A stretch of 64,000 nt of DNA from an uncultured Alphaproteobacteria bacterium (GTDB taxonomy: Bacteria; Pseudomonadota; Alphaproteobacteria; RF32; CAG-239): contig CALXYB010000008.1 of the NCBI GenBank assembly GCA_944392835.1, positions 4,821 to 68,820 on the forward strand, read 5' to 3'. Shown one piece after another: positions 9,120 to 60,436 of this stretch (positions are counted from its first letter, which is position 1; each line of letters begins with the position of its first letter). The translations under genes were made by a program, and so were the position numbers. The notes beneath the pieces are model-generated. The model ran no database searches and had not been told where the DNA came from. It saw nothing but the letters and a program-made list of their open reading frames with translations.

Positions 9120-9193
9120 GTGCCTATTATCACACTTAATCTTTTTTTCAACTTTGTGCTTTATACTAAAAGGCAAAGTTAGGAGTTTGTGCG

Positions 9194-9673: not shown

Positions 9674-9676
9674 GGT

Positions 9677-33160: not shown

Positions 33161-33196
33161 GGCAGCCGTTTCATTGACTGCCATTTTAATTGGTTA
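33161..33196 (+). repeat. terminator hairpin + degenerate island-boundary core (attttaattggtta)
   Basis: ggcagccgtttcattgactgcc hairpin, then a core related to the TTGGTGAT repeats further right. Coincides with the GC-content drop. Confidence 0.35.
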
Positions 33197-33478
33197 TTTT
33201 CTTTTTAAAAGATGAAGTAATATTATAATCAACACTGGTGAAAGTAATAATAATGCATAGAACTCAAGCTCAGAAAGCTCCACTAGATAATTAAGTCCAA
33301 AAACAATTAAAATTGGAGAAAGTCCAAAGACAATCCTTAAAAAATGCCAATCTTCGGTCACTGTATCATGATCACAATCTGTCCAACGATATATCTTAGG
33401 ATAAATATAACATCCATAAATGAAAAGCATTAATCCCAAAACAACCAATAAACTTCCGATTATCTTTACTGTTTCCAT
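33194..33478 (-). CDS. small membrane protein, hypothetical
   Basis: Three TM helices. Confidence 0.35.
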   Translation of the reverse strand: METVKIIGSLLVVLGLMLFIYGCYIYPKIYRWTDCDHDTVTEDWHFLRIVFGLSPILIVFGLNYLVELSELEFYALLLLSPVLIIILLHLLKRK

Positions 33479-33690
33479 AATAATATTATTAAATAGTTAA
33501 ACATTATGATTAAATTTTGTTAAATTATAATATGTTAAAAAAATAAGTAAAGATTTTAATATAAAAAATTTGGACGAAATAAAAAAACAACATCAAACTA
33601 AAAAACTGTTTGTATTAGTGATGCGGTTAGCCTAAGATTGCGGAAATATTTCCTAATCACAAGTTATTTATAATCATTAAAATGCGAGAT

Positions 33691-34011
33691 TTATATATTA
33701 TAAAAGTTGGTAAAATAGACATATCTCGCCAAATAAACAAGAGCCGGTATGGATAGAATGATATAGGCTTTTTTGAGATTTGTTTTACGCTTTTTCCAAG
33801 CATAAACCGTAGGTGCAATTATTATCAACAATATTGTTAATGTCATTATGGTATAGTTAAACCTATTTTCATATGCCCAACCTAATGCCTCTGCATTCCA
33901 TGGCATTTGGTTGCTACTCATTTCTTTTGGATATGTTATGGCATATATAAAAACTAAAAATCCATTTAAGGACAATAAGAGATAAAACAGTATGAGTTTG
34001 ATTTTTTTCAT
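33691..34011 (-). CDS. small membrane protein, tandem paralog 1
   Basis: About 90% nucleotide identity to 34146..34466 over about 320 bp. Confidence 0.4.
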   Translation of the reverse strand: MKKIKLILFYLLLSLNGFLVFIYAITYPKEMSSNQMPWNAEALGWAYENRFNYTIMTLTILLIIIAPTVYAWKKRKTNLKKAYIILSIPALVYLARYVYFTNFYNI

Positions 34012-34145
34012 AATTGCACCTTCGATTAAATTTATTCAAAGTATATTCAGCATTTACCTTAAATACAATAAAAATCACCAACAATCTTTATCATATTTTA
34101 CATTAAGAATCATATCATGCCCATATTTCTTAAATTTAAATGAGG

Positions 34146-34466
34146 CTATATATTAAAAAAGTTGATAAAATAAATATATTGTATCAGATATAAAAGAGCC
34201 GGGATGGATAGAATTATATAGGCTTTTTTGAGATTTGTTTTACGCTTTTTCCAAGCATAAATCGTAGGTGCAATTATTATCAACAATATTGTTAATGTCA
34301 TTATGGTATAGTTAAACCTATTTTCATATGCCCAACCTAATGCCTCTGCATTCCATGGCATGCTGTCACTTGTCATATCATCTGGATATGTTACTGCAAT
34401 GATAAAAACCGCAAAGGCATATAATCCTGACAATAGATAAAACGGTATGAGTTTGATTTTTTTCAT
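34146..34466 (-). CDS. small membrane protein, tandem paralog 2
   Basis: Start trimmed to MKKIKLIPFYLL. Near-identical C-terminal two-thirds to paralog 1. Confidence 0.4.
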   Translation of the reverse strand: MKKIKLIPFYLLSGLYAFAVFIIAVTYPDDMTSDSMPWNAEALGWAYENRFNYTIMTLTILLIIIAPTIYAWKKRKTNLKKAYIILSIPALLYLIQYIYFINFFNI

Positions 34467-34480
34467 AATTGCACCTTCGG

Positions 34481-34876
34481 TTAAAGCGGAATACATTTTT
34501 GAACTTTATTCCAACTCAAGCAATCATTTCTGCATATGTGTTGGTCATAGTCCCATACCAAGCCATTATCAAGACAAGAATCCAATTGATGTGCTCGCTT
34601 GATATTCGCATTAAATAAAAACATTTGAAGAAAAGCTAAAAAAATGAGCATTACAAAAATATAATGTTTTTGTTTATATCTATTAAACACCCAAAAAATT
34701 AGTCCCCAACACAATGTTGTGATGATTGCCACGTAAGGAATATGCGCCATTGATGCTTCTTCATTTTCCGTAATATAAGCTTCATAAATCAGAAACAAAA
34801 CTATTGGCGTAATCAAAATTCCTTTAACAATTATATGCATTGCTTTAAGAAATAACTCTTTGGTTTGTTTTTTCAT
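34481..34876 (-). CDS. membrane protein, hypothetical
   Basis: TM helices plus C-terminal Cys-containing tail. Overlaps start of paralog 2 (coupled). Confidence 0.4.
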   Translation of the reverse strand: MKKQTKELFLKAMHIIVKGILITPIVLFLIYEAYITENEEASMAHIPYVAIITTLCWGLIFWVFNRYKQKHYIFVMLIFLAFLQMFLFNANIKRAHQLDSCLDNGLVWDYDQHICRNDCLSWNKVQKCIPL

Positions 34877-34925: not shown

Positions 34926-35438
34926 TTATTTGTAGTAATCGCGTGGATTACGAGAGCAACTTTCTAAAAGATTTTTTCCCGATTTTGCTCCCTGCCAACC
35001 TCTACGATTTGCTTCCCAATCATCTGATGATGCTTGAATTCCATCTTTCATTACTCCATACGGAAATTCTCGTGCTGTACTTAAAGTTTTTGCAACAAAT
35101 TCTCCCCATTTTCCCCTTTTAGCGGCTTCATAATTTGCTTTACAATGAAAAAATTTATCATTTCCTATAGTGGCATCTTCTTCCATCTCTTTTTTATTTT
35201 GCACAAAGTCATAAAATGGAGCTAATAACCCCGTTCTTGTTTTTCCTGGATAATTAGATTTATTTTTCTGCATATATTCATTGAGATGAGCCTCTGTCTT
35301 TTTTCCCCAATTTTCAGAAATATTTGATTTTTTTGTTCTATATGTTTCTAAATAATCCTTTTTACTATTTTCAATATTATCAATAGAAAATTTTTTAGAA
35401 GGATCTTCTTGTATAATATATCTTATTAAATTACTCAT
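34926..35438 (-). CDS. serum amyloid A (SAA) domain protein with N-terminal MSNLIRYIIQEDP tag
   Basis: IGNDKFFHCKANYEAAKRGKWGEFVAKTLSTARE and DDWEANRRGWQGAKSG align closely with the vertebrate SAA core ([34 protein letters not shown] ... ADQAANEWGRSG). Start trimmed to ATG 35438 with AAGGA RBS. Confidence 0.65.
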   Translation of the reverse strand: MSNLIRYIIQEDPSKKFSIDNIENSKKDYLETYRTKKSNISENWGKKTEAHLNEYMQKNKSNYPGKTRTGLLAPFYDFVQNKKEMEEDATIGNDKFFHCKANYEAAKRGKWGEFVAKTLSTAREFPYGVMKDGIQASSDDWEANRRGWQGAKSGKNLLESCSRNPRDYYK

Positions 35439-35477
35439 TTCTTTTTCCTTATTCTTTGTTAATTTTAGATACAAAAA

Positions 35478-35524: not shown

Positions 35525-36014
35525 ACATTTTATCTTTTATAATATTTTCTATTTAAAGTAAAGGAAAAAATTCCTATCTTGTGGGTAATTATGTTTTATG
35601 TTATTTAAGATGTTCCAAAGAGCTTGCATTTTTGCTTAGCGCTCCCTTCCGGGTTCGAACTTCTATTGTAATTATGATACTTTTTTATAATTTTTACTCT
35701 TTCTTGCTCATAAGCTCAAGCTTTTAGCTTTCGCCAACTCGCTTCGGTCACTCCATTTGTAACGTTTTTCGCCTACACTTCCGTTTGGCTCAAAACCAAC
35801 AAATGTTCGCCTGTCGTTAAAAATTCCTCCACGGGAGAAATTTTTTTCCTCCAGCCCCATACTTTGACGATGAGCCCTTAAATTTCAAAAATAAAAAAAT
35901 TGTTGATTAAAAATAAAAGGAATAAAATAAAAAAGTTCGGACAAATTGAAAAAATGATGATTTTTGAAAAAGAAACATCCGAACTTGATGAAAGCCTTGG
36001 AAATAAAAGAAAAA

Positions 36015-36050
36015 GCAGCCATTCTCATGACTGCCGTTTGAATTGATGAT
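36015..36050 (+). repeat. terminator hairpin + degenerate boundary core (gtttgaattgatgat)
   Basis: Terminates the radical SAM gene in minus orientation. Core is related to the TTGGTGAT repeats. Confidence 0.35.
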
Positions 36051-36091
36051 ATTGTTAGTCTAAAGTTGCGAAAATATCTATTAGTTTTTTA

Positions 36092-37348
36092 TTAACGTTC
36101 TTTTATTTTATTTTTCATAAAAGTATTAGAAAATTGACAAAATCCACCACATTTTATCCCTTCTGGTGAATTATTGACATCACAATCCTTGCATGCCTCT
36201 TGTGTTTTTAATCGTGAGCGCAATGTATAGTCTAGCTCTTGTAGCAATGCTTCAGGTGTATACTTTTCAATTGGCCCTTTCTTATGCTTACGATCCATAT
36301 GACAAACTAACAGACGACCATTTACATCAATGTTTATTAGTTGACGAATATCACAACCATAATACCTTGATTCTTGTATTTTATCTGCTAAATGGACGGT
36401 GTTGTGAAAAACATGCGGATTATTTTTGTGTTTTTCATAAATGCTCCTCATATCAACATTCTGCAATTCATTATTAGCAGCGGCTCCTGCAATTATTGTT
36501 GGACGGATAAATAAATTTATTTCAAATGGTTTTAAATATTCAACTAATCTATCAATACCAGGTTCATTATCTTGATTGACTGTACATAACAAAGAACAAT
36601 TTATGCCATTTTCTTTTAATATCTTAATTCCTTCTATATCTTTTGCAAAAAGTCCTGGTCTTTTTCTACTTTTGTCATGTAATTCCCCGTATGAGTCAAT
36701 ACTTATAATTATATCACTTGAACTTTTTAATGAATTAATAGTTTTTTTATCTAATGAAGACAAATACTCTCCGTTAGTTACAATTGTATATAAAAAATTT
36801 TCTTTATTAACAAAATCACAAAGTTCAGATAGATCTTTTCTAAGCAAAGGCTCACCACCTAAAATTTCGAGTCTAGTTATTCCTAATTTTTTTAAGTGCT
36901 TGATTCTTTTTTTCAAAGTATCCAGAGAAGGCGGAGGTGTTGGAATTTCTGCTTTATAACAAATATCGCAATTACACTGGCAAGCATCTGTAATTTCAAT
37001 TCTGCCATAATAAGGCAAGTCATTATTCAAACAGTGAACTTTCTTAAAAGAATTGGGATGATTAGTTTGTTCTATTAGTTCATGACTGAGTAACTTCTGA
37101 ACTATAGATTTAGGCATTCCATTCAGATTAAAAATCGGTTGTTGAAGAATTTCTACCATTTCATTATCCAGAAACAAAACACTATTTATTGTTTTTCCTG
37201 ATATAGCCAACGTTCCATTAGGAGATATTCTGAGTAAGCTATTCTTCATAATAGAGTACGTTTCTGTGCCTATATAAACAGAGGTATCTTCTTTAATAAA
37301 CTCTTTTTTACATGGAACAGCTCGACTGTATAAATTTGTTACTTGCAT
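36092..37348 (-). CDS. radical SAM enzyme with C-terminal SPASM/twitch domain (peptide- or protein-modifying maturase-like)
   Basis: CQCNCDIC (CxxxCxxC). C-terminal Cys cluster CHMD...CKDCD...CGGFC. About 130-aa N-terminal extension, possibly substrate recognition. Start trimmed to ATG 37348 with AGGGG RBS. Confidence 0.75.
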   Translation of the reverse strand: MQVTNLYSRAVPCKKEFIKEDTSVYIGTETYSIMKNSLLRISPNGTLAISGKTINSVLFLDNEMVEILQQPIFNLNGMPKSIVQKLLSHELIEQTNHPNSFKKVHCLNNDLPYYGRIEITDACQCNCDICYKAEIPTPPPSLDTLKKRIKHLKKLGITRLEILGGEPLLRKDLSELCDFVNKENFLYTIVTNGEYLSSLDKKTINSLKSSSDIIISIDSYGELHDKSRKRPGLFAKDIEGIKILKENGINCSLLCTVNQDNEPGIDRLVEYLKPFEINLFIRPTIIAGAAANNELQNVDMRSIYEKHKNNPHVFHNTVHLADKIQESRYYGCDIRQLINIDVNGRLLVCHMDRKHKKGPIEKYTPEALLQELDYTLRSRLKTQEACKDCDVNNSPEGIKCGGFCQFSNTFMKNKIKER

Positions 37349-37413
37349 TTCATGGCCCCTAAGCGAGTTATTTTTACATAAAAACAATTAACAGTAATAT
37401 TTTTATCAAAAAA

Positions 37414-37444
37414 TGTCAATATTTTGTCAAAAAAAATATTGACA
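37414..37444. promoter_or_regulatory. perfect 12-bp inverted repeat (TGTCAATATTTT-N7-AAAATATTGACA) in divergent promoter region
   Basis: Read directly from the sequence between the rSAM gene and the kinase-HIT-AlaRS-like operon. Candidate operator. Confidence 0.45.
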
Positions 37445-37591
37445 CAGCAAATTATTAACGATATATTAACACAAAAAAAATGCAGTAAATTAAATAATTA
37501 ATTACACAAAATTGTAAATTTTATATAACTTCTAGCAAAATTAATCTTATTTCTTATTAATTTTTTCTAAATTAATATTGTAAAGGTAAAA

Positions 37592-38197
37592 ATGAAGAAC
37601 ACAATAATCTATTTAATTGGAGGCCCCGGAGTTGGCAAACAAACTATTGCTAAAGAAATTCAAAAAAAGCAATCTTTTACTTTAGTGGATAATCATTCGT
37701 ATACAAATGCCATTTTTTCGATATCAAAAAATTATTCTCATCCTAAACACGAAGAATACAGACTAAAAGTACGCAATATTGTTCTTGAAGCTATGGGCGA
37801 AATTTGTCCCAAAGGCGAATCTTTTATATTTACAAATGTAATATCTTTGGGCGAAGAAACTTCATATTATAAGCCAGTTGAAAATCTTGCTAATACACGA
37901 CGCTCCTTATTTATTCCTGTAATGTTATTATGCGAAATGAAAGAGAATCAAAAAAGAATAGCTAATCCTTTTCGCAAAAAATTTTTGAAAACAATAAATC
38001 CCGAAGCAGTCCAACAAATTGCGAACTTAGGACTGCCGGAGATAGAACACCCTAATCTTTTACGTTTAGATGTTACTAAGCTATCTGCAGCAGAAGCTGC
38101 TCTACAAATTATAACGCATGTTAACCATATTAGAAAAAAACAAAATGGTTATTATTCTAAATTCTCAACAAAAGCCAATGGAGGGGCAAATTTATGA
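37592..38197 (+). CDS. P-loop NTPase / small-molecule (nucleotide) kinase-like protein
   Basis: Walker A GGPGVGKQT at N-terminus. About 200-aa size, typical of AAA_33/CPT-like kinases. Stop overlaps next start (ATGA). Confidence 0.55.
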   Translation: MKNTIIYLIGGPGVGKQTIAKEIQKKQSFTLVDNHSYTNAIFSISKNYSHPKHEEYRLKVRNIVLEAMGEICPKGESFIFTNVISLGEETSYYKPVENLANTRRSLFIPVMLLCEMKENQKRIANPFRKKFLKTINPEAVQQIANLGLPEIEHPNLLRLDVTKLSAAEAALQIITHVNHIRKKQNGYYSKFSTKANGGANL

Positions 38198-39006
38198 TAA
38201 AAAATTGCGTTTTGTGCGATGGTTTAAAAGACGAGTTTCAAAATATTAAGGAACAATACCCTGAACTACAGAGCAATGTAACTTTGTTTGAAACTAAAAA
38301 CTTTAAAGTTATTCCAGATAAATTTCCGATTGCACCTAATCACATTATTATTCTGCCGAAAGAACATATTAATACATTTGCTGAATTTAATGAAGCCCAA
38401 GGGCGAGAAGTTGGTTATATATTAGATCGTTTAGAGAACACAACAAAATCTGATAATTTTATTATGTTTGAACACGGAACAAGTAAATCTGAAGAGTTAA
38501 ATACTCCACCACATATTAAGTCAATATTTCATGCACATTTACACTTTATTCCAAATGTTAAATGCAATACAGAGGATATGGATGTTTTTTTTCAACAGAA
38601 AAACGTTCAATTACTTGATTATGATGGTTCTCAAAGAAATATATCTGAGTTTCAAACACAATATTCTGGAAATGCAAATTTAGTCAATTTTATTAAAGAC
38701 AATGTTATATATGAAGATTCTGCTCGTACTTCAGTTGAATCCTATTTTTATATAAAAAGCTCAGATAATACACAATTATTCTTTCCAGAAAGACTTGTAA
38801 CGCCAAGAATTCCATCTCAATTTTTACGAGAGGCTTTAAGTGTGCAATGTGAAACACCTGAATGGAACTGGAAAGTCGGCATGACTGCTGAGGGGCGTCA
38901 AAAATATGGAACGAGAATTGTACAAATGGCCAAATTATTTAAGCAAAATGATTATAATAATATTTTAGTTATGACCAAATTTAAATCTGGTTATGGTAAA
39001 GAATAG
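38194..39006 (+). CDS. HIT (histidine triad) superfamily nucleotide hydrolase/transferase-like protein
   Basis: N-terminal CVLCDG. Histidine triad HAHLHFIP (HxHxHxx). Translationally coupled to the upstream kinase. Confidence 0.55.
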   Translation: MIKNCVLCDGLKDEFQNIKEQYPELQSNVTLFETKNFKVIPDKFPIAPNHIIILPKEHINTFAEFNEAQGREVGYILDRLENTTKSDNFIMFEHGTSKSEELNTPPHIKSIFHAHLHFIPNVKCNTEDMDVFFQQKNVQLLDYDGSQRNISEFQTQYSGNANLVNFIKDNVIYEDSARTSVESYFYIKSSDNTQLFFPERLVTPRIPSQFLREALSVQCETPEWNWKVGMTAEGRQKYGTRIVQMAKLFKQNDYNNILVMTKFKSGYGKE

Positions 39007-39015
39007 GATAAAAAA

Positions 39016-40119
39016 ATGAAAATAAAAGATATGCCAAGATTTAATAGAAAAGAAAGTCATTTTCATATGCAAAATATGATTGATGGTTTTCTTAATTACT
39101 TTCAGGAACATTCTTGTATAAAACATGAACCGGTTAAAATCTCATCAGGGATTGATCCATCTGTTCGCTTTATTGGCTCTCACATCAGTGTTTTAAAGCC
39201 TTATTTTTTAAATGACAACATTCCTACAGGAGGATATGTTATGTCACAGCCATGTATTCGTACACGAAATTTAAAAAATTATGAAAATGATGATTTTTAT
39301 CCCAATTGGGGATCATATTTCCCAAGTCTTGGAATACTGACTAAACCTGAAAGATTGGAGGATATTACAAAACAAACTTATAGCTTTATTCAAGAGCAGT
39401 GGAATATTGATCCTCACGATATAAGAATTCGTATTAGTGCTAATGATACAGATTTGATGGATCTAGCTCATAGTATATTCAAGTCCGAAATGTTTGAAAT
39501 AGACACCATGCAACCAAAATATTATCGCCACAAACTTGGTATAGATGGTGTTTGGGGGCGTAATTTCAATCTTGCTTTACGTGATTATGGAAAAGATACT
39601 TTTTCAGACATTGGAAATGTTATTATTTTGGAAAATCAGGATAAACAGCTTGGAATAGAAATTGCATTAGGAAGCTCTACTGTATTAAAACAAATTTATG
39701 GATTAAGTCATGTCATGGATTGTCACCCTGTATTAGGATTGGATAAGTATATTCAAAATCCTAATATCCGTGTAAAGATGGAAGATACAATTGTTACAAG
39801 TATGGCCTTATATAATGATGGACTAGAACCATCTAATAAGGATAACACTAACCGCTTGATGAAAAAATATCTTGAGATAATGAAAGCTTGCGTTGACAAG
39901 ACAAATCTCCCCAAAGAGGTTCTTAGAAAAACACTATACCAGTATGAATTATTGGAATATGGTTCAAATAATGGAATATATACTCAAAAAATTATGGATT
40001 TTATTTGTTCATCTTCTCAAGCTCAGAAATCAAAAGCTTTAGAAAATAAACAACAATTGGAAGCTTCTCCCTCAAATTCCATAATTTTTACATTATCGCA
40101 AAATAAATTATCTAGATGA
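39016..40119 (+). CDS. alanyl-tRNA synthetase catalytic-domain paralog (truncated, stand-alone class II aaRS-like)
   Basis: FLNYFQEH..DPSVRFIGSHISVLKPYFL..SQPCIRT..NDDFYPNWGSYF aligns with the AlaRS N-terminus FLDFFHSKGH..DPTLLFTNAGMNQFKDVFL..SQRCVRAGGKHNDLENVG..FFEMLGNFSF. 367 aa, versus about 875 aa for AlaRS. Confidence 0.55.
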   Translation: MKIKDMPRFNRKESHFHMQNMIDGFLNYFQEHSCIKHEPVKISSGIDPSVRFIGSHISVLKPYFLNDNIPTGGYVMSQPCIRTRNLKNYENDDFYPNWGSYFPSLGILTKPERLEDITKQTYSFIQEQWNIDPHDIRIRISANDTDLMDLAHSIFKSEMFEIDTMQPKYYRHKLGIDGVWGRNFNLALRDYGKDTFSDIGNVIILENQDKQLGIEIALGSSTVLKQIYGLSHVMDCHPVLGLDKYIQNPNIRVKMEDTIVTSMALYNDGLEPSNKDNTNRLMKKYLEIMKACVDKTNLPKEVLRKTLYQYELLEYGSNNGIYTQKIMDFICSSSQAQKSKALENKQQLEASPSNSIIFTLSQNKLSR

Positions 40120-40269
40120 CATTCCTCCGTAAAATTTTGGGAGCTATGAATATGCTTAAAGGATAGGATTGTGTTGAGTAGCACCTAAGCATTTTACCGA
40201 GAATAACCTCTGAACTTACATCAAGACAACTACTTAAAGAAAAGCGGGAAGTAACATTCCCGCCTTTCT

Positions 40270-41268
40270 TTAATGCTCCAATATTTCAATAATAGGTAAT
40301 TTATCTCCCTGCATTTTCAGTGAAATCTGTCCTCCGATGGGATAGGTAATAATTGGAGTTGTATGACCGATATCAAAATTAGCAATTACTGGTAAATCAT
40401 TTAATGCTTCTTTAGTATGAATAATCTGTTCAAGCAAATTTCTATCAATTTTAGATTCTGGTCTAAAACGACCAATAATCAGTGCCTTAACATATTTAAA
40501 GTCGGCTTGTTGAATTAAAGACTGCAACAAACGGTCAAATAAGACGGCATTCGTTTCTTCATCTTCTTCTAAAAATAGAATAGAGTTTTTCAAAGATGGC
40601 CAGAATTCAGTGCCTTGTAAAGAACTTAAGCAACGGACATGGCCCCCAATCAATTTCCCCTCGAATATATTTCCTTTTCCTTTATTTATAATCCAAAACC
40701 CATTATTGGGTGTAAAATTACGTTTTTCCTGATCCATAAACCATTCATCATTGCTATATTCTTTAGCCGGTGTAACTTGATAGGGTGTATTCTCAATTAG
40801 ACATTTTTTAAAATAATCCAAGGTATAATCAAAACCGTGAAGCATTCCAAAACTTGAAAAATGCGGTCCAGAGTAAGTTACAACATCTGTCTTTGTTGTT
40901 ATTGCATGACAAAGACATGTAATATCAGAAAAGCCACATAAAATCTTAGGATTATTTTTTATAAGTTTATAATCAATTCTATCAATCAATTGATTTGTAT
41001 TAAAACCACCAATAGCTGTTAAAATACCATCAACATTTTTATCCGCAAAAGCCTCATGTAAATCTTCAAGCCTTGAAGCAATTGATGAAGAGACAAAATC
41101 ATCAATCTCATCGCAATGTTTAGAATAGCTTACTGATATCCCCATATCTGCAAAACGTTTCTTTGCGATTTCACGCGTTTCTTCAGAAATGATTTTAAAA
41201 CTTCTTGATGGGGCAATTATACGAATATGCGCCCCTGGTTTTAATTTTTTTGGACAAATCATCAGCAT
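40270..41268 (-). CDS. LD-carboxypeptidase (peptidase S66, MccF-like)
   Basis: Ser nucleophile motif GFSDITCL. His in IGHT. 332 aa. Confidence 0.75.
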   Translation of the reverse strand: MLMICPKKLKPGAHIRIIAPSRSFKIISEETREIAKKRFADMGISVSYSKHCDEIDDFVSSSIASRLEDLHEAFADKNVDGILTAIGGFNTNQLIDRIDYKLIKNNPKILCGFSDITCLCHAITTKTDVVTYSGPHFSSFGMLHGFDYTLDYFKKCLIENTPYQVTPAKEYSNDEWFMDQEKRNFTPNNGFWIINKGKGNIFEGKLIGGHVRCLSSLQGTEFWPSLKNSILFLEEDEETNAVLFDRLLQSLIQQADFKYVKALIIGRFRPESKIDRNLLEQIIHTKEALNDLPVIANFDIGHTTPIITYPIGGQISLKMQGDKLPIIEILEH

Positions 41269-41402
41269 CTCCTAATTTTAATAAACTTTTATTTAACCAT
41301 CAATATCATAAAGCAACTTAAAGATGATATTAAAATTCGTCTTGCAATAAAATCTAAGCCTATTTTTTTATGTAAGTCAATTAAAATATAAAATCTACAA
41401 TA

Positions 41403-42074
41403 TCATCCATATATCTCATCAAGCTTTTGTTCTAGATTTCCGGATTGAACGGCTGGTAACGTGTCAAATTGTCTCAGATTATGCTTTTCTATCTTAATTT
41501 CGTCACTGAAGCCTAAGATATAGGCGATAGCTATGCGATATATAATTTCTGTCGGAGCCAAACCGTAAACCTGATTGGCAAAAATATGTTGTAACCGTTC
41601 TTTATCATTCGGAAAGGCTTGTTTCATCTTCTCGTTTCTGTATAATCTTTTAACAATTTCGGTAATATAAAGACCAGATTTCATATATAAGTCGATAAAG
41701 GTTTTATTAGGATCATCAAAGCATTCAGGATTTTCCGCCAATAAGCTATCTACCATTTCCACAACCACTTTCTTGGGGGTGTATATTTGGTTGGTCTTTT
41801 GGGGTGGAATATAATCGAAAATGTCTTCTTTGCTTGCTTCATCAAAGTAATTTCCTAATTTTCGTTTCAGATTAAGAAACTCTTTAACCTCTGACAAATC
41901 GACATTTCCGGAAACTTCTCCTCCTAAAACTACAGTATTATCTTTAAGCAAAACCTCCACCGAATAGCGGATATTCTTATCTTGAGCCAGCAGGCGATCC
42001 AAAATGTATGATGAAATATAATCTGCTGTTTTATCAGGATGCCCGAGAGAAACAAACTCTGCCGTCTTTTTCAT
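41403..42074 (-). CDS. protein with S-adenosylmethionine synthetase (MetK) N-terminal-domain homology, otherwise divergent
   Basis: SLGHPDKTADYISSYILDRLL...VVLGGEVSG aligns with MetK [21 protein letters not shown]...MVLVGGEIT. Start trimmed to ATG 42074 with AAGGA RBS. The listed upstream extension covers leader hairpins. Confidence 0.5.
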   Translation of the reverse strand: MKKTAEFVSLGHPDKTADYISSYILDRLLAQDKNIRYSVEVLLKDNTVVLGGEVSGNVDLSEVKEFLNLKRKLGNYFDEASKEDIFDYIPPQKTNQIYTPKKVVVEMVDSLLAENPECFDDPNKTFIDLYMKSGLYITEIVKRLYRNEKMKQAFPNDKERLQHIFANQVYGLAPTEIIYRIAIAYILGFSDEIKIEKHNLRQFDTLPAVQSGNLEQKLDEIYG

Positions 42075-42323
42075 AGTTTTTCCTTCATAAAAAAAGCCCG
42101 CAGAATTTAATCTGCAGGCACAAACAAAAAAGGGAACAAGCCTTAAACACAACTCGTTCCCGATTATAGCTATTTTTATAAACTATTTTTCAGTTTTTGT
42201 CTTGTCTGTTTTTGTCGCAACCATAAACATTCATACGTATGTAATCGATAAAAATATCATTGCATACGTACAGAATTTAATTTACTATACGTTTTAGTTT
42301 ATAAAAAATATAAAGGTAAAAAA

Positions 42324-43331
42324 ATGTACGACGGATCAATTTCAAACTATAATAAAATAGAAGAGGATGCCTCCTACCATGAAATTATATCTTTTGAAGA
42401 TGAAAAGGACATTCGCAAACGATATTTAGACGAGCTTGCAAAAAATAAAGATAATTCACAGAAAATATCCGTTCTAAATGTAGCATTGATTAACTATTTT
42501 ATTAAAAAAGATAGATTTGATTTAGCTAAAGATGTGTTAAAAAAACAAACCTCCTTTTGCACAGAAGAACTTATAACATTGTTCGCATCTAAAATTGATG
42601 TAGAAATTCTGAGCAAAACAGACGTAGATTTTATCAATGAAGTTTTAAAATATTTATCGCACATTAAAACGAATAATAACGGACATCATGTAATTCACGA
42701 TTTAAAAGAAAAGATCAAAAAAATTAAAGAGAAAATCAAACAAGAATCAAAGAAAAAAAATGATAAGTATAAAAACAAAGAAACAAAATTATCTACCTCA
42801 TCTCAAAAAAAAGAAAATTTAACAGTAAGTCAGAATAAAGCCGAATCTCCTGAAGAGGCAATATCTTTCTTATCAAAATATATCAGCGAACAGAAACAAA
42901 ATATAAAAACCTTGAATGAAGAAAAACAGCTCATATTATCCCAAGTTAATACTTCTCAGAGAAAATTAGATGATTTAACAAAACAGTTACATACGGTAAT
43001 TCAAGAGAAAAAAGCAAAATCTTTTGAATTAGAAGATATTGAACAAAAATATAATAAGTTGAAAAAAGAAAATGATACTTACAAAATAAAAACACAAAGA
43101 AATGAAGAAGAGTTAGGCAAGAAAATTGAAAGCCTATCAAATAGTATCGATATTCTTAAAGAGAGTCATAAAATTGAAATACAATCTCTAAAAATCAATA
43201 TAAGAAATAAATTGAAAATAAGATATGATGATTTTTTAGATAAAAAAGATGAATTATCAAATAATCAATTGAAAATTTTAATTGCCAATATTTTTGCAGA
43301 CTTAGAATATCTTGGCATTAAATTCAAATAG
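42324..43331 (+). CDS. coiled-coil protein, hypothetical
   Basis: K/E-rich heptad-like C-terminal half. Stop overlaps next gene. Confidence 0.45.
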   Translation: MYDGSISNYNKIEEDASYHEIISFEDEKDIRKRYLDELAKNKDNSQKISVLNVALINYFIKKDRFDLAKDVLKKQTSFCTEELITLFASKIDVEILSKTDVDFINEVLKYLSHIKTNNNGHHVIHDLKEKIKKIKEKIKQESKKKNDKYKNKETKLSTSSQKKENLTVSQNKAESPEEAISFLSKYISEQKQNIKTLNEEKQLILSQVNTSQRKLDDLTKQLHTVIQEKKAKSFELEDIEQKYNKLKKENDTYKIKTQRNEEELGKKIESLSNSIDILKESHKIEIQSLKINIRNKLKIRYDDFLDKKDELSNNQLKILIANIFADLEYLGIKFK

Positions 43332-44748
43332 GAGATTAATTATGGGCTTCTGTGGTATTGATTTTGGAACAACAAATACAGCTATGGTCTATTTTTCAGA
43401 ACACACAGGAATGATATTTGTAGGGGATGAAGAAGAAAATTTACCTTTACCATCTATAGTTGCGTTAAACAAACATACTGGCGAAATCATTGTTGGAAGT
43501 GATGTAAAAAGAAATATACAGAAATATACTAGAGATTATGAAATAGTTTTATCAATTAAGACTGTTTTGGATGATCCTAAACAGGAATGGAATGTTGCTG
43601 GTCGAACATTAAAGCCTGTAGATATAGCCGCAGAAATTTTTAAAACTCTTAAAAACAATGCAACTAAAAGAAAAATAGATATATCAAAAATTGTAATTTC
43701 GGTCCCTATTAATTTTTCATCTGGAAAAAAAATATGCCTTCGAGAAGCTGCCAAAAAAGCCGGATTGGACATCAAAAAATTTGTAAATGAACCTACCGCA
43801 GCATTTTTAGCTCATTATGAGGAGTTAAAATCATTTTCTAAAACAGTTATTTTTGATTGGGGAGGCGGAACTTTAGATATATCTGCATTAGATATTAAAA
43901 ATGGTACTATTAGAGAAATATACACAGATAACATGTATAAAGCGGGAGATAATATAGATAAAGACCTGGCCCGTAGTATTTATGAAAAATCCATAAAAAA
44001 ATATGGTTTGTCGCTTATTCCTTTTGATAAAATAGAAGCCGACGAATATGATGAATTAATCGCAAAAGCAGAATTAGCAAAAATTTACTTATCAAAAGAT
44101 AACCAGAATCGATATGATGATTTTTGCAAAATACAAGGTAAAATACGAGATATTACCGTAACATACGAAGATTTATGTAATATTTCTGAAAATATAGTCA
44201 ATGAAGCTATAAGCAAATTAAATCATGTAATAAGTAAAGCATATAATGAACGAGTGCATTGCATTTTATGTGTAGGAGGCTCCTCAAATCTAAGAAACCT
44301 TAAAGAAAAATTGAGAAAAATTTATGGTGATATCCTGTATTTTCCTGATTTTCCACAATGGGATATAGCAAATGGTGCTTGTATTATAGATGCCTCAAAT
44401 AGAAATAATGTCTATAAACTGGCTTACGATATTAATCTAATTTTATCAAATGGAGATAAATATCCTCTTTTAAAAGAAGGTCAACTCATTCCTTGCAAAG
44501 AATCAAAAATACATTTATCGACTGTTGATTGCTCAGAAAATGCAAATTTTGTATTTCAATTTGGTCAAGATGAATATCATGAAATAACAATTCCTCTTCT
44601 AGGTGGAGTTGATGAGACTTTTGATTTATTCACATATATTGATAACTATTCTGTCTTGCATATAGATATGAAGAATAACAAAATTCAAGAAGATGAAAGA
44701 TACAATATATTTCGATATGAAAAACTAGATTTATGTTACAACGTGTAA
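43312..44748 (+). CDS. Hsp70 (DnaK)-family actin-fold ATPase, stand-alone
   Basis: GIDFGTTNTAMV phosphate-1. DWGGGTLDIS phosphate-2. NEPTAAF connect motif. 478 aa with no DnaK substrate-binding-domain signature. Confidence 0.7.
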   Translation: MALNSNRRLIMGFCGIDFGTTNTAMVYFSEHTGMIFVGDEEENLPLPSIVALNKHTGEIIVGSDVKRNIQKYTRDYEIVLSIKTVLDDPKQEWNVAGRTLKPVDIAAEIFKTLKNNATKRKIDISKIVISVPINFSSGKKICLREAAKKAGLDIKKFVNEPTAAFLAHYEELKSFSKTVIFDWGGGTLDISALDIKNGTIREIYTDNMYKAGDNIDKDLARSIYEKSIKKYGLSLIPFDKIEADEYDELIAKAELAKIYLSKDNQNRYDDFCKIQGKIRDITVTYEDLCNISENIVNEAISKLNHVISKAYNERVHCILCVGGSSNLRNLKEKLRKIYGDILYFPDFPQWDIANGACIIDASNRNNVYKLAYDINLILSNGDKYPLLKEGQLIPCKESKIHLSTVDCSENANFVFQFGQDEYHEITIPLLGGVDETFDLFTYIDNYSVLHIDMKNNKIQEDERYNIFRYEKLDLCYNV

Positions 44749-44757
44749 GGATAAAAA

Positions 44758-45486
44758 ATGTTATCTATAAATTCCAATATCCAGTACAAAAGTAATGTTT
44801 ATATTGTTTCTAGCTCATATAGTCCTTATGATGATTCATCTTTCATTCATCAAGTATATGATGCAAAGAAGTTGAACGAAATAATAAAAAAATCTCGTTT
44901 TGGAGATGTATTGTTGACAAAAGTACAAAGATATATTTTAGAGAAAGATGTAGTTTGTGTTTATGCAAAAAAATTTCTAAAAAGTGAAACAGCGCAATAT
45001 TTCGTTCTGACAAAACACAATGAAGAGAAATGTAAATGCCAAATTGTTGATTGTCCTTTATTTGAGCAATGCCGTCCAAATGAAAAGATTAAAGCTAAAA
45101 CAGAGCAAGAGAGATTTAATAACTTAAGTATTGCTGAGAAAATTGATAATACCCATTATTATCCTATTATGCTAAATTTTGACAGAGTAATTGAGAGATG
45201 TAGCGATAATGCTTTTGACATTATATCTGATATAGATATGACGCAATATCAATATAATGATAATGTGACCTTTTCATATGTTGGAGATGGAAATGGTGCA
45301 AATTGGGACAACTGGGTCGGAGGAAGTGAAGAAAGGTATTTTAGCTCAGAAAAAAAGACAAAAAACATCCCTGTAGTAGATTTAACTTCTGATGTTCAAG
45401 CCTCTAATAACCCTATGTTAGAATACCAAAAAAGACACTTAAATCTAGATAATGAGTTTTTTAAGAAAATAAATAAAACCCCATAA
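44758..45486 (+). CDS. hypothetical protein (third gene of Hsp70-like operon)
   Basis: 10-nt gap from upstream gene. Hairpin terminator overlaps stop (45478-45500). Confidence 0.4.
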   Translation: MLSINSNIQYKSNVYIVSSSYSPYDDSSFIHQVYDAKKLNEIIKKSRFGDVLLTKVQRYILEKDVVCVYAKKFLKSETAQYFVLTKHNEEKCKCQIVDCPLFEQCRPNEKIKAKTEQERFNNLSIAEKIDNTHYYPIMLNFDRVIERCSDNAFDIISDIDMTQYQYNDNVTFSYVGDGNGANWDNWVGGSEERYFSSEKKTKNIPVVDLTSDVQASNNPMLEYQKRHLNLDNEFFKKINKTP

Positions 45487-47137: not shown

Positions 47138-47764
47138 TTATAAATTATCTATATTTTGTTGCAATTCATTTATAAATTTTGAAACATGCCTCCCATCACA
47201 AACAGCATGATGTGCCAAAACAGAAAAAGGAAGTATTGTTTTGCCGTTTTCTTCAATATATTTGCCCATAGTAAAAATAGGCATCAAGTAGTCATAACCT
47301 TGCTTCAAGTTTAAATTGAATGAAGAAAAATGAAGCCATGGTAGCATAGATACATAAAAAATATTAGGAGGACAATTCGGTTTGGCTTCATATTTCATTA
47401 TATTGCCATATTTATTAACATCAGAATTATAATTCCGGCAAAAAGTCTCAAAATCAGGATCATATTCACTCCAAATTCCTGAAAAAGTTTCCGTTTCTTT
47501 GTGAAAAATCGTATATGCCGGATGAACAATATCAAAAAAACCTAAAATTCCATCATCATCAAACATTGTTCGAAATTCTTCATGTTTATTAACAAGTCTA
47601 GCCAATAAATACAGCATTGCTGGGTAAAGTTTTAAACTTTTATTCCTGAGATTGGAAATATCTAAATTAACCGTTATACTAAACGTTGTGGGTACATTGC
47701 TATAAAATTGTTCAAAATATTCTTTACGTTCTCGCTGTTCCATATTGATTGGAGTAAATACCAT
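47138..47764 (-). CDS. catP: chloramphenicol O-acetyltransferase (type A, CatP-like)
   Basis: Collinear high similarity to clostridial CatP (KLYPAMLY, TETFSS, IFTMGKY, HHAVCDG catalytic His motif). 208 aa. Confidence 0.9.
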   Translation of the reverse strand: MVFTPINMEQRERKEYFEQFYSNVPTTFSITVNLDISNLRNKSLKLYPAMLYLLARLVNKHEEFRTMFDDDGILGFFDIVHPAYTIFHKETETFSGIWSEYDPDFETFCRNYNSDVNKYGNIMKYEAKPNCPPNIFYVSMLPWLHFSSFNLNLKQGYDYLMPIFTMGKYIEENGKTILPFSVLAHHAVCDGRHVSKFINELQQNIDNL

Positions 47765-56314: not shown

Positions 56315-56860
56315 ATGATTTTTAACTATATCCGTGTTTCAACTACCGACCAAAACACCGAACGACAACTTTTAGATATTCCGTGCGACCGAGCTTATAT
56401 TGAAAAAATCAGCGGCAAAAATACCGACCGCCCTGAATTACAGGCTATGTTATTAAATATTCGTTCCGGCGACATTTTAAATATTCACGAAATGAGTCGT
56501 TTGGCTCGTAATACTCGGGATTTGCTGAACCTTGTAGAGGAAATTACAGCCAAAGGAGCGACTATAGTCTTTTATAAAGAAAATTTGACCTTCAAAGGCG
56601 ATGGAAAGCAAGACCCTTATCAGAAAATGATGATGACGATGTTAGGAGCCGTTGCGGAGCTTGAACGTAATTTAATCCTTGAACGCCAACGAGAGGGTAT
56701 AGCTCTTGCCAAACTTCACGGCAAATATAAAGGCGGTCAGCCTAAACTAACCGCCCAACAAGTCGAAGAAATAAAAGCCCTTGTTAATAATCGCACACCA
56801 ATAACGCAAATTGCCAGACAATATAACATCAGCCGTCGTACTGTATATAACTACCTATGA
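56315..56860 (+). CDS. small serine recombinase (resolvase/invertase family)
   Basis: IRVSTTDQ catalytic Ser motif. C-terminal HTH. 181 aa. Confidence 0.8.
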   Translation: MIFNYIRVSTTDQNTERQLLDIPCDRAYIEKISGKNTDRPELQAMLLNIRSGDILNIHEMSRLARNTRDLLNLVEEITAKGATIVFYKENLTFKGDGKQDPYQKMMMTMLGAVAELERNLILERQREGIALAKLHGKYKGGQPKLTAQQVEEIKALVNNRTPITQIARQYNISRRTVYNYL

Positions 56861-58906: not shown

Positions 58907-60436
58907 TTGAAAATGATAAAAAATGCAGTTTTATTAAGGCGAGTATCGACCGTTATGCAGGAGCGTGATGGTAATTCACTTCAAAATCAATCAGAAATGC
59001 TAACTCAATACTGTGAACGAAAAGAGATGACTATCATTAAAGACGCAGAAATAGTCGAGAGCAGTACCAGAGGCGAACGTAAAAAATTTATGGAAGTCAT
59101 AAAGTTCTGCCAACAACAACGCGGTGGTGTTGCTTTAGTATGTTTGAAGACTGACAGACTGTTTCGAAACTTCAAGAATTATACATTGATTGATGAAATG
59201 CGAAAAAGCGGACAGCTTGAGCTTCACCTGATTCAAGAAAACTTAGTGTTAAATAAAGATTCCAAAGCCGGTGACTTAACCATACTCGGTTTAAATGTCG
59301 TTATGGCTCAAAACTATGCTCTTAGCTTACGAGATAATGTGGTTTACGGTATGGATTATTCTGTCAATCAAGGACGGTGTATGTCGAAAGCTCCAGCAGG
59401 CTATTTAAATATAAGAACACCGGACGGAAAAGCCGCTGTAATTATTGACAATGAACGAGCTCCAATTATTCAGAAACTTTTTGAAGAATACGCAACAGGG
59501 CTTTATTCGGTTAAGGACATGATGAAAAAATGCAAAGAATGGGGGCTTGTCAGTCGGTTTTCCGGTAAACCGTTTGATACAAGCACAATTCACCGCATAT
59601 TAAATAACAAATTCTACATTGGGGAAATGCTGTATAAAGACCAATGGCACAAGCACAATTACGAAACATTGATTGCACCTGCTTTGTTCAAAACTTGTCA
59701 GGATATTATGCACGGTCGCAAACCAGAAGAACCTAAACATTTCAAAACCACCGAAAAGCCCTTTATCTTTCGAGGACTGATAACTTGTGGAGAATGCGGT
59801 TGTATGGTTAGTAGCTACCGCAAAACGAAACCTAGCGGTAGAGAATATGTTTATCTGAAATGTTCGCATTTCAAGGGAAACTGTAACAATCCGCAAGTTA
59901 ATGAAAACGTTGTTTTACAACAAATTGAAGACGAATTGAAAAACTTGTCCGTACCGCAAGAGATAATGGGCTATCTTAAAGCTGATATGGAGAAAATCAT
60001 AAATCGACAGAATGAAGCCCATAACCGTGAAGTCAAAGCCATTCGCAAGAAATACGATGACTGTCAGGATAAAATTAAACGTCTGCGGTCATTACTGCTT
60101 GAGGGATATATTACACCGGAAGAATACCGTGACATGAATGAAGACCTTAAAAATGAGCAGTACGAACTAGAGGGGAAATCAGAATTGTTGACAGAAGCTG
60201 ATGAAAAGTTTTCAATCGCAGTCGCGACAATACTTTCCTTGGGCAATAATGCGTATAAAATCTTTCAGAGTTCGAAAGTAGAAACAAAAAGAGAGATTTT
60301 GCACATCTTACTTTCGAACTTGAAATTGCAAGACCGTAAAATCTCTTATACCTTTAGAAAACCTTACGATTACATCAAGTCTTTAAATAAAAAAATACCC
60401 TCAAAAACTGAGGGTATCGCAATTGGTGATGCTTAA
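58907..60436 (+). CDS. large serine recombinase
   Basis: N-terminal resolvase domain (RRVSTVMQ), recombinase domain, Cys zinc ribbon (CGECGC...C...C) and coiled-coil. Last five codons lie inside the 22-bp direct repeat. Confidence 0.85.
   Translation: MKMIKNAVLLRRVSTVMQERDGNSLQNQSEMLTQYCERKEMTIIKDAEIVESSTRGERKKFMEVIKFCQQQRGGVALVCLKTDRLFRNFKNYTLIDEMRKSGQLELHLIQENLVLNKDSKAGDLTILGLNVVMAQNYALSLRDNVVYGMDYSVNQGRCMSKAPAGYLNIRTPDGKAAVIIDNERAPIIQKLFEEYATGLYSVKDMMKKCKEWGLVSRFSGKPFDTSTIHRILNNKFYIGEMLYKDQWHKHNYETLIAPALFKTCQDIMHGRKPEEPKHFKTTEKPFIFRGLITCGECGCMVSSYRKTKPSGREYVYLKCSHFKGNCNNPQVNENVVLQQIEDELKNLSVPQEIMGYLKADMEKIINRQNEAHNREVKAIRKKYDDCQDKIKRLRSLLLEGYITPEEYRDMNEDLKNEQYELEGKSELLTEADEKFSIAVATILSLGNNAYKIFQSSKVETKREILHILLSNLKLQDRKISYTFRKPYDYIKSLNKKIPSKTEGIAIGDA

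Follow-up and report, generated by a model that had tools for sequence, protein, structure and literature searches.

Several classes of enzyme are known to inactivate aminoacyl-nucleotides. MccF, a peptidase of the S66 family, and the C-terminal domain of MccE, which is of the GNAT family, both detoxify them. MccH represents a class of HIT enzymes with the same effect, and stand-alone homologues of MccF and MccH confer resistance (PMC7157772). The HIT phosphoramidases of the MccH clade carry an HxHxK motif, have the N-terminal His replaced by Phe, and have a Glu five residues upstream (PMC7157772). On the biosynthetic side, the ascamycin enzyme AcmF is a truncated protein similar to alanyl-tRNA synthetase (AlaRS), with the aminoacylation and tRNA-recognition domains only, the substitutions D232E and N219Q, and loss of ATP-binding residues; it no longer activates alanine, and instead takes it from Ala-tRNA and attaches it to dealanylascamycin, at the sulfamate nitrogen (PMC12945691). 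Encoded alongside AcmF are AcmD, a dedicated AlaRS, and AcmE, a de-alanylating hydrolase (PMC12945691). Here we describe a five-gene cassette in a stretch of 64,000 nucleotides from an uncultured alphaproteobacterium (assembly GCA_944392835.1, contig CALXYB010000008.1, positions 4,821 to 68,820; hereafter the window, in which all coordinates are given unless a related locus is named). The cassette comprises a radical-SAM (rSAM) gene on the minus strand, then genes for a kinase, a HIT protein and AlaL, a truncated AlaRS-like protein, on the plus strand, and then an S66 peptidase gene on the minus strand, and it is one horizontally mobile unit. We tentatively favour the reading that the product of clusters of this kind would be a nucleotide or nucleoside, aminoacylated so as to mimic an aminoacyl-adenylate, with self-protection by the S66 peptidase; we regard this as quite possible and stop short of calling it probable.

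An original prediction, made from the letters alone, had grouped six adjacent genes of an AT-rich island into a candidate module for the synthesis of, or immunity to, an aminoacyl-nucleotide inhibitor, and had stated that no known cluster has this composition. We find all six open reading frames (ORFs) where that prediction had placed them. Five of them form the cassette, and the sixth, a “MetK-N-like” gene, is a chimeric ORF at the edge of the mobile block. The island is indeed AT-rich, with a GC content of 0.28-0.34 across approximately 33-51 kb of the window against 0.40-0.46 in its flanks. A cluster of this composition is described neither in PADLOC, nor in NCBIfam, nor in the literature that we searched, which also holds no description of AlaRS-like/S66 clusters. 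Domain calls are based on Pfam and NCBIfam profile searches, comparison with the PDB, AlphaFold2 models searched with Foldseek, and hhalign.

AlaL (39016..40119, plus strand, 367 aa) has an aminoacylation domain and the start of a tRNA-recognition domain, and is without the editing and C-Ala domains. As a single sequence its Pfam match is below threshold (PF01411, E-value 1.8e-5, 24 bits versus a cut-off of 30.3), and against the NCBIfam model TIGR00344 it scores 22 bits where the cut-off is 457. A profile of 35 AlaL family members matches the AlaRS catalytic fragments in the PDB with an E-value of 5.5e-7, and an hhalign alignment to E. coli AlaRS spans 250 columns with a probability of 90%. 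The AlphaFold2 model has a pLDDT (predicted local distance difference test) of 90.7 and a structured part covering the N-terminal ~330 of the 367 residues; its top 19 PDB matches are all AlaRS N-terminal fragments (Foldseek E-value 1e-14, template-modelling score 0.70). The predicted AlaRS relationship of this protein thus survives both the profile and the structure tests.

The hhalign alignment also tells which parts of the active site are kept. Using E. coli numbering, R69 is retained as AlaL R82, the adenine-stacking F90 as F102, and N212 as N201; E209 corresponds to AlaL D198, which we count among the residues that hold the adenylate. The invariant changes are at the amino-acid/ATP end, where D235 becomes E215, G237 becomes A217, and the motif-3 Arg becomes T222. 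Altogether 36 residues are invariant in the AlaL alignment, R82, N201 and E215 among them. The first helices of the tRNA-recognition domain are also retained: the AlaL motif ‘EGLEPS..N.NR’ is the counterpart of ‘DGVMPSNENRGY’, and a ‘DG..PSN..RGYVLRR’-like helix is kept. With an incomplete domain set, scores below the family cut-offs, and changes at D235, G237 and the motif-3 Arg, AlaL is not a canonical alanyl-tRNA synthetase. Nor does it fit the predicted stand-alone catalytic core that makes Ala-AMP, given that part of the tRNA-recognition domain is kept, the motif-3 Arg is lost, and D235 is changed to E as in AcmF. AlaL has the AcmF-like architecture of aminoacylation and tRNA-recognition domains only. 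Of the substitutions of the AcmF type, D to E is present and invariant (E215) and the motif-3 Arg is lost, but N201, R82 and F102 are kept. By this comparison, for which AcmF is represented by its published description only, a role as an aminoacyl transferase is more likely for AlaL than one as a synthetase.

The second constant element is the S66 serine peptidase (40270..41268, minus strand, 330-332 aa), convergent with AlaL and separated from it by a terminator-like hairpin (40244..40263, plus strand). Both of its domains are recognized (PF02016, E-value 2.9e-32; PF17676, E-value 5.4e-28). An alignment to Bacillus anthracis MccF gives a putative triad S114/E234/H302, with the motifs GFS114D, LE234ED and GH302T intact. 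Its best PDB matches (E-value 1e-102), at ~55% identity, are BA_5613 and Lmo1638, two MccF-like proteins from structural genomics, followed by B. anthracis MccF (8e-39) and E. coli MccF (6e-30). The LdcA structures in the PDB match with E-values of 1e-14 to 1e-17, and against the NCBIfam LdcA model the protein scores 99.5 bits with a cut-off of 378. In both domains and Ser-Glu-His motifs, the peptidase is of the MccF type, nearer to MccF than to the LdcA murein carboxypeptidases, and by sequence it falls on the MccF side of its family, away from LdcA, as the original prediction had it.

Beyond the window, a profile search of 1.84 billion representative proteins finds 298 AlaL clusters (at 50% identity) with E-values up to 1e-30, and 501 clusters with E-values up to 1e-10. 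With so few clusters among so many representatives, the family is rare though diverse, and clearly distinct from true AlaRS. Every member that is named in its source is called a “hypothetical protein”. The hosts are mainly Patescibacteria, and include gut Alphaproteobacteria, a Calothrix plasmid, Serratia plymuthica, Serratia nevei, Dysgonomonas and archaea. For the neighbourhood counts, we called ORFs in 43 non-redundant loci (L numbers below denote related loci in general), clustered the neighbours, and looked within four genes of AlaL. An S66 peptidase is found in 36 of the 43 loci, in Patescibacteria, gut Alphaproteobacteria, Calothrix and archaea. A ligase resembling the AsnRS (asparaginyl-tRNA synthetase) core or archaeal AsnA is present in 27/43, a Class I SAM methyltransferase in 25/43, an HD phosphohydrolase in 15/43, a HIT protein in 6/43, an alpha2-type glycyl-tRNA synthetase (GlyRS) in 5/43, and paired dCTP-deaminase-like (DCD) genes in 4/43. 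The conserved core is AlaL plus S66, and rSAM, kinase and HIT are lineage-specific accessories. The variable partners are overwhelmingly nucleotide-acting enzymes, together with amide-forming ligases and tailoring enzymes.

These genes come in a few recurrent arrangements. The commonest is HD-methyltransferase-AlaL-S66-AsnA-like. The second is that of the window, [rSAM][kinase]HIT-AlaL-S66, with rSAM and kinase absent in L011, L015 and L017. The third is that of Serratia, where two DCD genes and two ATP-grasp L-amino-acid ligase (LAL) genes join in as methyltransferase-DCDx2-AlaL-metallophosphoesterase-LALx2-MFS; these AlaL proteins are distant (29-32% identity), and the two loci (L052 8012-15480, from S. 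plymuthica NBRC 102599, and L057, from S. nevei) have no S66 gene. With its two ligases and its MFS exporter, the Serratia cluster looks, from its gene content, like a peptidyl-nucleoside biosynthetic cluster. Hybrid arrangements exist as well, S66-HD-methyltransferase-AsnA-like-AlaL-S66-GlyRS in L020, and a kinase-HIT fusion facing S66-AlaL-methyltransferase in L062. In one archaeal locus, three NUDIX genes accompany HIT-AlaL. L040 has AlaL and S66 joined in a single 692-aa protein, and further fusions amongst the representatives are GNAT-AlaL, AlaL-methyltransferase, receiver-AlaL and AlaL-HD. Thus S66, GNAT and HIT, the three enzyme classes known to inactivate aminoacyl-nucleotides, all associate with AlaL across the family.

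This degree of co-occurrence bears on the simplest alternative, that unrelated genes came together by chance in a junk island. The island is a mosaic with pseudogene remnants, the MetK-N chimera among them, as that explanation would have it. Chance juxtaposition can nevertheless be excluded, since the block is kept as a unit in different flanks (see below), and AlaL and S66 are adjacent in 36/43 loci across phyla, with several fusions. The neighbourhood check that the original prediction had proposed therefore turns out in its favour, with strong co-occurrence and gene fusions in other genomes, which support its claim of a functional unit around aminoacyl-nucleotide chemistry.

The linked GlyRS genes may say something about the amino acid. 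In L028 (Staskawiczbacteria), two alpha2-type GlyRS paralogues that are 66.5% identical to each other (1872-3272 and 8870-10273) bracket an HD-methyltransferase-AlaL-S66-AsnA-like cluster. The cluster-linked GlyRS copies of L028 (1872-3272), L032 and L039 are 77-78% identical, and two alphaproteobacterial loci, L011 and L020, likewise have GlyRS directly beside the cluster. By analogy, this linkage has the pattern of a dedicated donor aminoacyl-tRNA synthetase (aaRS), as AcmD is, or of a self-resistance copy. Because GlyRS paralogues are linked to the cluster in five loci, the evidence suggests that the amino acid may be glycine instead of alanine, or else that GlyRS is the target.

Upstream of AlaL in the window are the two genes proposed to act on the nucleotide. 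The kinase (37592..38197, plus strand, 201 aa) has a stop codon that overlaps the start of the HIT gene, and in three homologues of 447-460 aa (P0191, P0193 and P0194) it is fused N-terminally to the HIT protein. Only a P-loop/NMP-kinase-like (nucleoside monophosphate kinase-like) N-terminus is detectable. Its AAA_18 match (E-value 1.2e-5) is below the Pfam cut-off, and there are weak matches to adenylate, dephospho-CoA and adenosine 5'-phosphosulfate kinases, the PDB adenylate kinases having E-values of ~0.1. The predicted P-loop small-molecule kinase is then borne out as far as this N-terminus goes, but not by a Pfam match above threshold.

The HIT-superfamily protein (38194..39006, plus strand, 270 aa) has two Pfam matches above cut-off (PF11969, E-value 2e-8; PF01230, E-value 3.5e-6), and Hint/Fhit-type structures as PDB matches (E-value 1.7e-6 for the Hint type), so that profile and structure tests confirm the predicted HIT fold. 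The motif is F-H113-A-H115-L-H117-F-I, a canonical HxHxH, and the upstream H50 is kept. The protein also has an N-terminal CxxC, an FEHG motif, and a C-terminal extension of ~150 aa with an invariant IPSQFxR and WxW; the extension alone has no Pfam match. The window protein and relatives of ~215 aa make up a subfamily of their own, in which FEHG, IPSQFxR and WxW are conserved. An assignment to MccH is ruled out by the HxHxH motif in place of HxHxK and by the retention of H50, so the MccH-like role that the original prediction had implied does not hold, this HIT protein being outside the MccH immunity clade.

The combination of a P-loop kinase, phosphoesterases and a methyltransferase resembles RNA-repair toolkits, and one could imagine repair or modification of tRNA 3' ends. 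With AlaL bound to the acceptor stem, a damaged CCA end would be healed and marked by the kinase, the methyltransferase and a phosphoesterase of the HD, HIT or metallophosphoesterase type, by analogy with Pnkp/Hen1, and S66 would strip an aberrant aminoacyl group. The part of the tRNA-recognition domain kept in AlaL is in line with such a role, as is the archaeal locus L064, which has archease and RtcB a few kb away. But there is no ligase for the repair, the kinase and methyltransferase similarities are generic, and AsnA-like ligases, L-amino-acid ligases, dCTP-deaminase-like proteins and an MFS exporter do not fit. We hold this explanation to be highly improbable.

The rSAM enzyme (36092..37348, minus strand, 418 aa; PF04055, E-value 7.7e-15) likely starts at an ATG 13 codons inside a 431-aa ORF that begins with TTG, and it is called as 418 aa in most contigs. 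It has an RRE-like domain at ~25-105, a CX3CX2C core (C123, C127, C130), and SPASM-type C-terminal cysteines that are conserved in the alignment (C332, C349, C389, C400, C404). In the AlphaFold2 model (pLDDT 87.4), a beta-rich, winged-helix-like N-domain (beta-beta-beta-beta-alpha-alpha) is followed by the rSAM core and the Cys-rich C-domain; the N-domain alone has no Pfam match. The best PDB matches, near full length (~450 columns), are SuiB, SkfB and CteB, maturases of ribosomally synthesized and post-translationally modified peptides (RiPPs) that contain an RRE. The enzyme thus has the architecture of RiPP rSAM-SPASM maturases, with the RRE called from the overall alignment length and not from a domain-only comparison, and the rSAM-SPASM call of the original prediction is confirmed. 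The family is tiny, with ~12 full-length homologues and at most 27% identity to named maturases. BlsE, MoaA and viperin structures align to the rSAM core only (~280 residues for viperin). A prokaryotic viperin (pVip) can be discarded, with a score of 53.8 bits against a cut-off of 180 for NF038283 and a match confined to the generic rSAM core; the weak PADLOC matches are to pVip (E-value 6e-18, for rSAM) and to VakA (E-value 0.016).

The relatives of this rSAM are found in varied company. A 65% identical one in L058 is followed by an integrase and lies beside an S66-AlaL-S66-AsnA-like cluster, next to a terminase gene. Another, 51% identical, is beside AbiTii and a restriction endonuclease in L060. 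The most distant full-length relative (32%), in L061 69-7741, occurs with a methyltransferase, two more rSAM-SPASM genes, an ORF of 36 aa and a FeeM-like gene; the group resembles a RiPP-type cluster, and is without AlaL or S66.

We find no conserved precursor-peptide ORF in the cassette, either by scanning the intergenic regions down to 6 aa or by comparison with loci that are 82% identical. The intergenic spacers in the block are 55, 243, 150 and 134 bp long, and the conserved part is promoter/operator only. This matters for the possibility that the system aminoacylates a peptide or protein, AlaL attaching an amino acid to a scaffold, either at its C-terminus or on a side chain, the RRE-containing rSAM tailoring it, and S66 releasing or trimming it. 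There are precedents: in EpmA/EpmB, an aaRS paralogue works with an rSAM enzyme. Peptide aminoacyl-tRNA ligases (PEARLs) extend peptides in an aminoacyl-tRNA-dependent manner (PMC12945691). The shared plan of SuiB, SkfB and CteB and the fact that S66 enzymes are carboxypeptidases point the same way. However, neither the cassette nor its immediate surroundings have a conserved scaffold or precursor ORF, and AlaL retains the adenine-stacking and phosphate-binding residues. Moreover, rSAM occurs in ~4/43 loci, and nucleotide-directed partners (HD, HIT, DCD, NUDIX, metallophosphoesterase, kinase) are the rule. We consider peptide or protein aminoacylation very unlikely.

For an aminoacyl-adenylate mimic, which is the reading that we favour, the mechanism could run as follows, with much less confidence in any single chemical step than in the general mechanism. 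The kinase and the HIT protein would prepare or edit a nucleoside-5'-phospho acceptor via a His-NMP intermediate. Since HIT enzymes act through such an intermediate, adenosine 5'-phosphoramidate is an attractive guess for the acceptor. AlaL would hold the nucleotide in its conserved adenylate pocket and load it with Ala or Gly, the donor probably being aminoacyl-tRNA, as for AcmF. The product would be a poorly hydrolysable mimic of an aminoacyl-adenylate that inhibits an aminoacyl-tRNA synthetase. The rSAM enzyme, with its RRE-like domain, may add a further modification, or join the compound to a partner, peptide or protein, whose gene lies elsewhere. The convergently transcribed S66 would cleave the aminoacyl-nucleotide bond, as MccF does, and so protect the host, and the toxin would act either after export, in competition, or within the cell, as in abortive infection. 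Relative to the synthesis-or-immunity interpretation of the original prediction, the chemical theme and the co-occurrence of the genes stand, and the MetK-N protein, the core that makes Ala-AMP and the MccH-like HIT protein have to be given up.

A number of observations weigh against this mechanism. Only homology and gene context speak for the proposed chemistry. AlaL keeps the equivalent of N212, where AcmF has N to Q. The S66 relatives nearest to ours, BA_5613 and Lmo1638, are without a known function, and we find no published one in the searched literature. With HxHxH, the HIT protein has the motif of hydrolases and not the HxHxQ of transferases, and for this reason it may be a second detoxifying enzyme instead of a biosynthetic one. 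The rSAM enzyme resembles a RiPP maturase, yet no precursor-peptide ORF is conserved in the cassette. The fusion of a “synthase” AlaL to an “immunity” S66 is odd, and would be a better fit to consecutive steps of a pathway. Finally, the window cassette is without an exporter, and without an obvious acceptor-forming enzyme besides HIT and the kinase.

Some of these same features would be expected if nothing were made at all, and the cassette conferred resistance only. The HIT phosphoramidase, the S66 amidase and the kinase (by inactivating phosphorylation) would detoxify exogenous aminoacyl-nucleotide antibiotics in the gut, and AlaL would be a decoy or binder of AlaRS/GlyRS inhibitors. The hydrolase-type HIT motif, the lack of an exporter in the cassette, the GNAT-AlaL fusions, a chloramphenicol acetyltransferase gene in the same island, and the precedent of stand-alone MccF and MccH homologues are all consistent with resistance. 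The HIT protein lacks the MccH-clade signature, however, and the AlaL active site is strongly conserved, the 36 invariant residues arguing for catalysis and not for a decoy. In addition, several partners (the AsnA-like ligase, the L-amino-acid ligases, the methyltransferase, the rSAM enzyme and the MFS exporter) belong to biosynthesis and not to detoxification. We judge resistance without synthesis to be quite unlikely.

The mobile block that carries the cassette extends from 36037 to 41889 (5.85 kb), and includes 487 bp of a truncated neighbouring gene. By BLAST of related contigs, it is 99.35-99.56% identical over 5853-5855 bp to L002, L003, L006 and L008, where the flanks differ on both sides, giving at least three distinct flanking contexts. 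The exact AlaL protein is present on at least 21 metagenomic contigs, and identical DNA also occurs in the metagenome-assembled genome CALXRS010000042; the source of the window is an uncultured gut alphaproteobacterium. In the context of the window, the cassette lies between a gene with a serum-amyloid-A-like domain and a coiled-coil/HSP70-like trio. In the second context, it has an AAA_15/AAA_21 ATPase and a serine recombinase on one side, and a resolvase and DUF2924 on the other. In the third, it lies between this ATPase and a ResIII + Eco57I pair. Restriction-modification genes (type I HsdM; ResIII + Eco57I) are near the cassette in the L002, L003 and L006 contexts. The window has its own resolvase (56315..56860, plus strand) and large serine recombinase (58907..60436, plus strand) further along the island. 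Homologues of this 56-60 kb pair directly adjoin the cassette in L003, and positions 56.2-60.4 kb of the window are 79% identical to the L003 DNA immediately to the left of the cassette. Closely related gut Alphaproteobacteria exchange the cassette by horizontal transfer, within an accessory or defence island that carries recombinases. The window has no tRNA genes as integration sites, and no Rfam RNAs, whether as integration sites or as riboswitches.

Two repeats are found at the edges of the cassette. Junctions between island modules repeatedly carry a ~150-bp element that contains an inverted repeat (GTTCGGA...TCGAAC) and a terminator-like hairpin, with copies at 35909-36086 and 47875-48031 of the window, and in L002 (15378-15502 and 16299-16468), L008 (4729-4909) and L017 (12392-12549). 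The left boundary of the cassette, at 36037, falls within the 35909-36086 copy, in which a terminator-like hairpin (36014..36035, minus strand) follows the rSAM gene at the block's left edge. A second, 64-bp sequence (41409-41472), just past the 5' end of the S66 gene, has an 87-91% identical repeat ~180 bp to the left of the cassette elsewhere (L002 6782-6845, L003 6780-6844, L006 1879-1942, L008 6781-6844). It makes a direct repeat that brackets the five genes in those four loci; the left copy is absent from the window.

The right-hand junction of the block, at 41889, is inside the “MetK-N-like” ORF (41403..42152, minus strand), which is outside the system. Its residues 29-87 match S-AdoMet_synt_N at profile positions 4-64 of 99 only, and aa 27-88 are a metK 5' fragment (~61 aa) from the local flank. 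Residues 89-249 correspond, with 100% identity, to the C-terminal 161 residues of a ResIII-family (helicase-like) protein of 1104 aa, whose gene is intact in L003 and L006 and whose truncated 3' end was carried in with the block. Two terminator-like hairpins lie within the nominal 5' end of the ORF. It is not an intact metK-derived gene. Since the junction is inside the ORF and residues 89-249 belong to the ResIII protein, the ORF is a chimeric recombination scar, and we reject a SAM- or adenosine-binding component for the system. The predicted sixth cluster member is then a pseudogene, a chimera formed where the cassette meets its flank.

Upstream of the kinase gene (37413..37470, plus strand) is the best promoter-like site of the region, with TTGACA-17-TATATT at 37439-37467 (11/12 match). 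Two palindromes, GTCAATATT-N-AATATTGAC and GTTAAyGATATATTAAC, overlap its -35 and -10. Both are conserved in loci that are only 82% identical, and the downstream spacer is not. By its sequence, 37413-37470 is a putative regulated promoter of a kinase-HIT-AlaL operon. There is no repressor gene in the cassette.

Operator-like palindromes over the promoter, a block that is mobile and in an AT-rich island, and the lack of an exporter in the cassette would also suit a system of anti-phage defence. Infection would derepress the operon, AlaL, HIT, kinase and rSAM would make a toxic aminoacyl-nucleotide so that translation stops (abortive infection), and S66 would keep the basal level harmless. The neighbours in several loci are defence-island-like, namely the AAA_15/AAA_21 ATPase, type I HsdM and ResIII + Eco57I in L002, L003 and L006, an OLD-like TOPRIM ATPase beside the Candidate Phyla Radiation (CPR) cluster in L013, and the AbiTii and restriction endonuclease of L060. 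On the other hand, most CPR loci are among housekeeping genes, and no sensor component is apparent. PADLOC v2 has no match for AlaL, HIT or S66, its matches being generic ones to pVip, VakA and methyltransferases, and the rSAM similarity to pVip is only of that kind. A pattern scan of the IMG/VR viral contigs finds no AlaL, hence no sign of an arms race, and the exporter and amino-acid ligases of the Serratia version suggest a secreted product. PHROGs gives nothing informative for AlaL, and the HIT and S66 proteins match only PHROGs of unknown function. We think that a role in defence is unlikely.

Several other genes of the island are worth recording. Directly to the left of the cassette, a bacterial protein (34926-35474, minus strand) has a serum-amyloid-A domain (PF00277, E-value 4.6e-16, residues 88-165), and a shorter version is found in L008. 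Next is a tandem of four small predicted membrane proteins (33194-34876, minus strand), two of which (33691-34011 and 34146-34496) are near-identical paralogues; no family matches are recorded for the four in matching contigs. To the right (42324-45486, plus strand) is a co-oriented trio of a 335-aa coiled-coil protein, a 478-aa HSP70/actin-like ATPase (PF00012, E-value 1e-33; without the substrate-binding domain), and a 242-aa protein without matches. The trio moves together in the window-type context and has no PADLOC match, and it is a candidate three-gene accessory or defence system. Further genes are of the chloramphenicol-acetyltransferase family (47138-47764, minus strand) and a 962-aa autotransporter (51856-54744, plus strand).

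If AlaL clusters do make aminoacyl-adenylate mimics, they would provide a new and widespread route to such inhibitors through an AcmF-like transferase, and not through MccB-type adenylation or sulfamate chemistry. To our knowledge, AcmF is the sole characterized transferase that derives from AlaRS and produces an aminoacyl-adenylate mimic. Patescibacteria have few conserved accessory gene clusters, one of which would gain a function, and many “MccF-like” S66 peptidases of unknown role would have a rationale. The mobile cassette could shape competition or phage resistance among gut Alphaproteobacteria. The relatives in S. plymuthica NBRC 102599 and S. nevei, which are cultured and genetically tractable, make experiments feasible. 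A bolder version, which we find doubtful, is that AlaL/S66 clusters are a previously unrecognized, phylum-spanning class of aminoacyl-AMP-mimic toxins, made by an aaRS-derived transferase, neutralized by MccF-like enzymes, and aimed at GlyRS/AlaRS; Patescibacteria would use them to attack hosts or keep them under control, and in the alphaproteobacterial cassette a RiPP-type rSAM would join the warhead to a peptide, or the compound would be a translation poison for abortive infection.

Of the described systems, four can be set beside these clusters. The prokaryotic viperins share an rSAM gene beside a nucleotide-kinase-like gene in a defence-island-like setting; the likeness is only in the generic rSAM core, and viperins are without RRE and SPASM domains. 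The RiPP maturases SuiB, SkfB, CteB and AlbA have the same RRE + rSAM + SPASM plan as the window rSAM, and give the best structural matches and NCBIfam alignments; the window rSAM differs in having no adjacent precursor gene, in lying within a nucleotide/aaRS-like cluster, and in belonging to a tiny distinct family. With microcin C (mccABCDEF), the cassette shares an S66 gene that, like mccF, is encoded with the biosynthetic operon and transcribed opposite to it; it is also mobile, and the S66, GNAT and HIT classes are all tied to the AlaL family. Unlike microcin C, the window has none of MccB (the ThiF/E1-like adenylyltransferase), the MccA precursor and the MccC exporter; we looked for MccB and MccA among the cassette ORFs, and neither is present. 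The bond-forming enzyme here is aaRS-like, and the HIT motif is HxHxH versus HxHxK in MccH. With the ascamycin system of Streptomyces sp. 80H647 (AcmF/AcmD/AcmE), compared by its description, AlaL shares the architecture and the D to E change. In both, a hydrolase of the aminoacyl bond accompanies the transferase (AcmE there, S66 here), and an aaRS paralogue is linked (AcmD there, GlyRS in five loci here). The differences are that AlaL clusters have no sulfamate or halogenation genes, that the hydrolase is an S66 peptidase here and an alpha/beta hydrolase there, that N212 is kept where AcmF has N to Q, that the partners here are HIT/kinase/rSAM or HD/methyltransferase/AsnA-like, and that the hosts are CPR and gut Alphaproteobacteria instead of actinomycetes. 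By analogy, then, the logic of AlaL and S66 maps onto ascamycin AcmF/AcmD/AcmE together with the immunity of microcin C, in a family that is itself uncharacterized and spans phyla.

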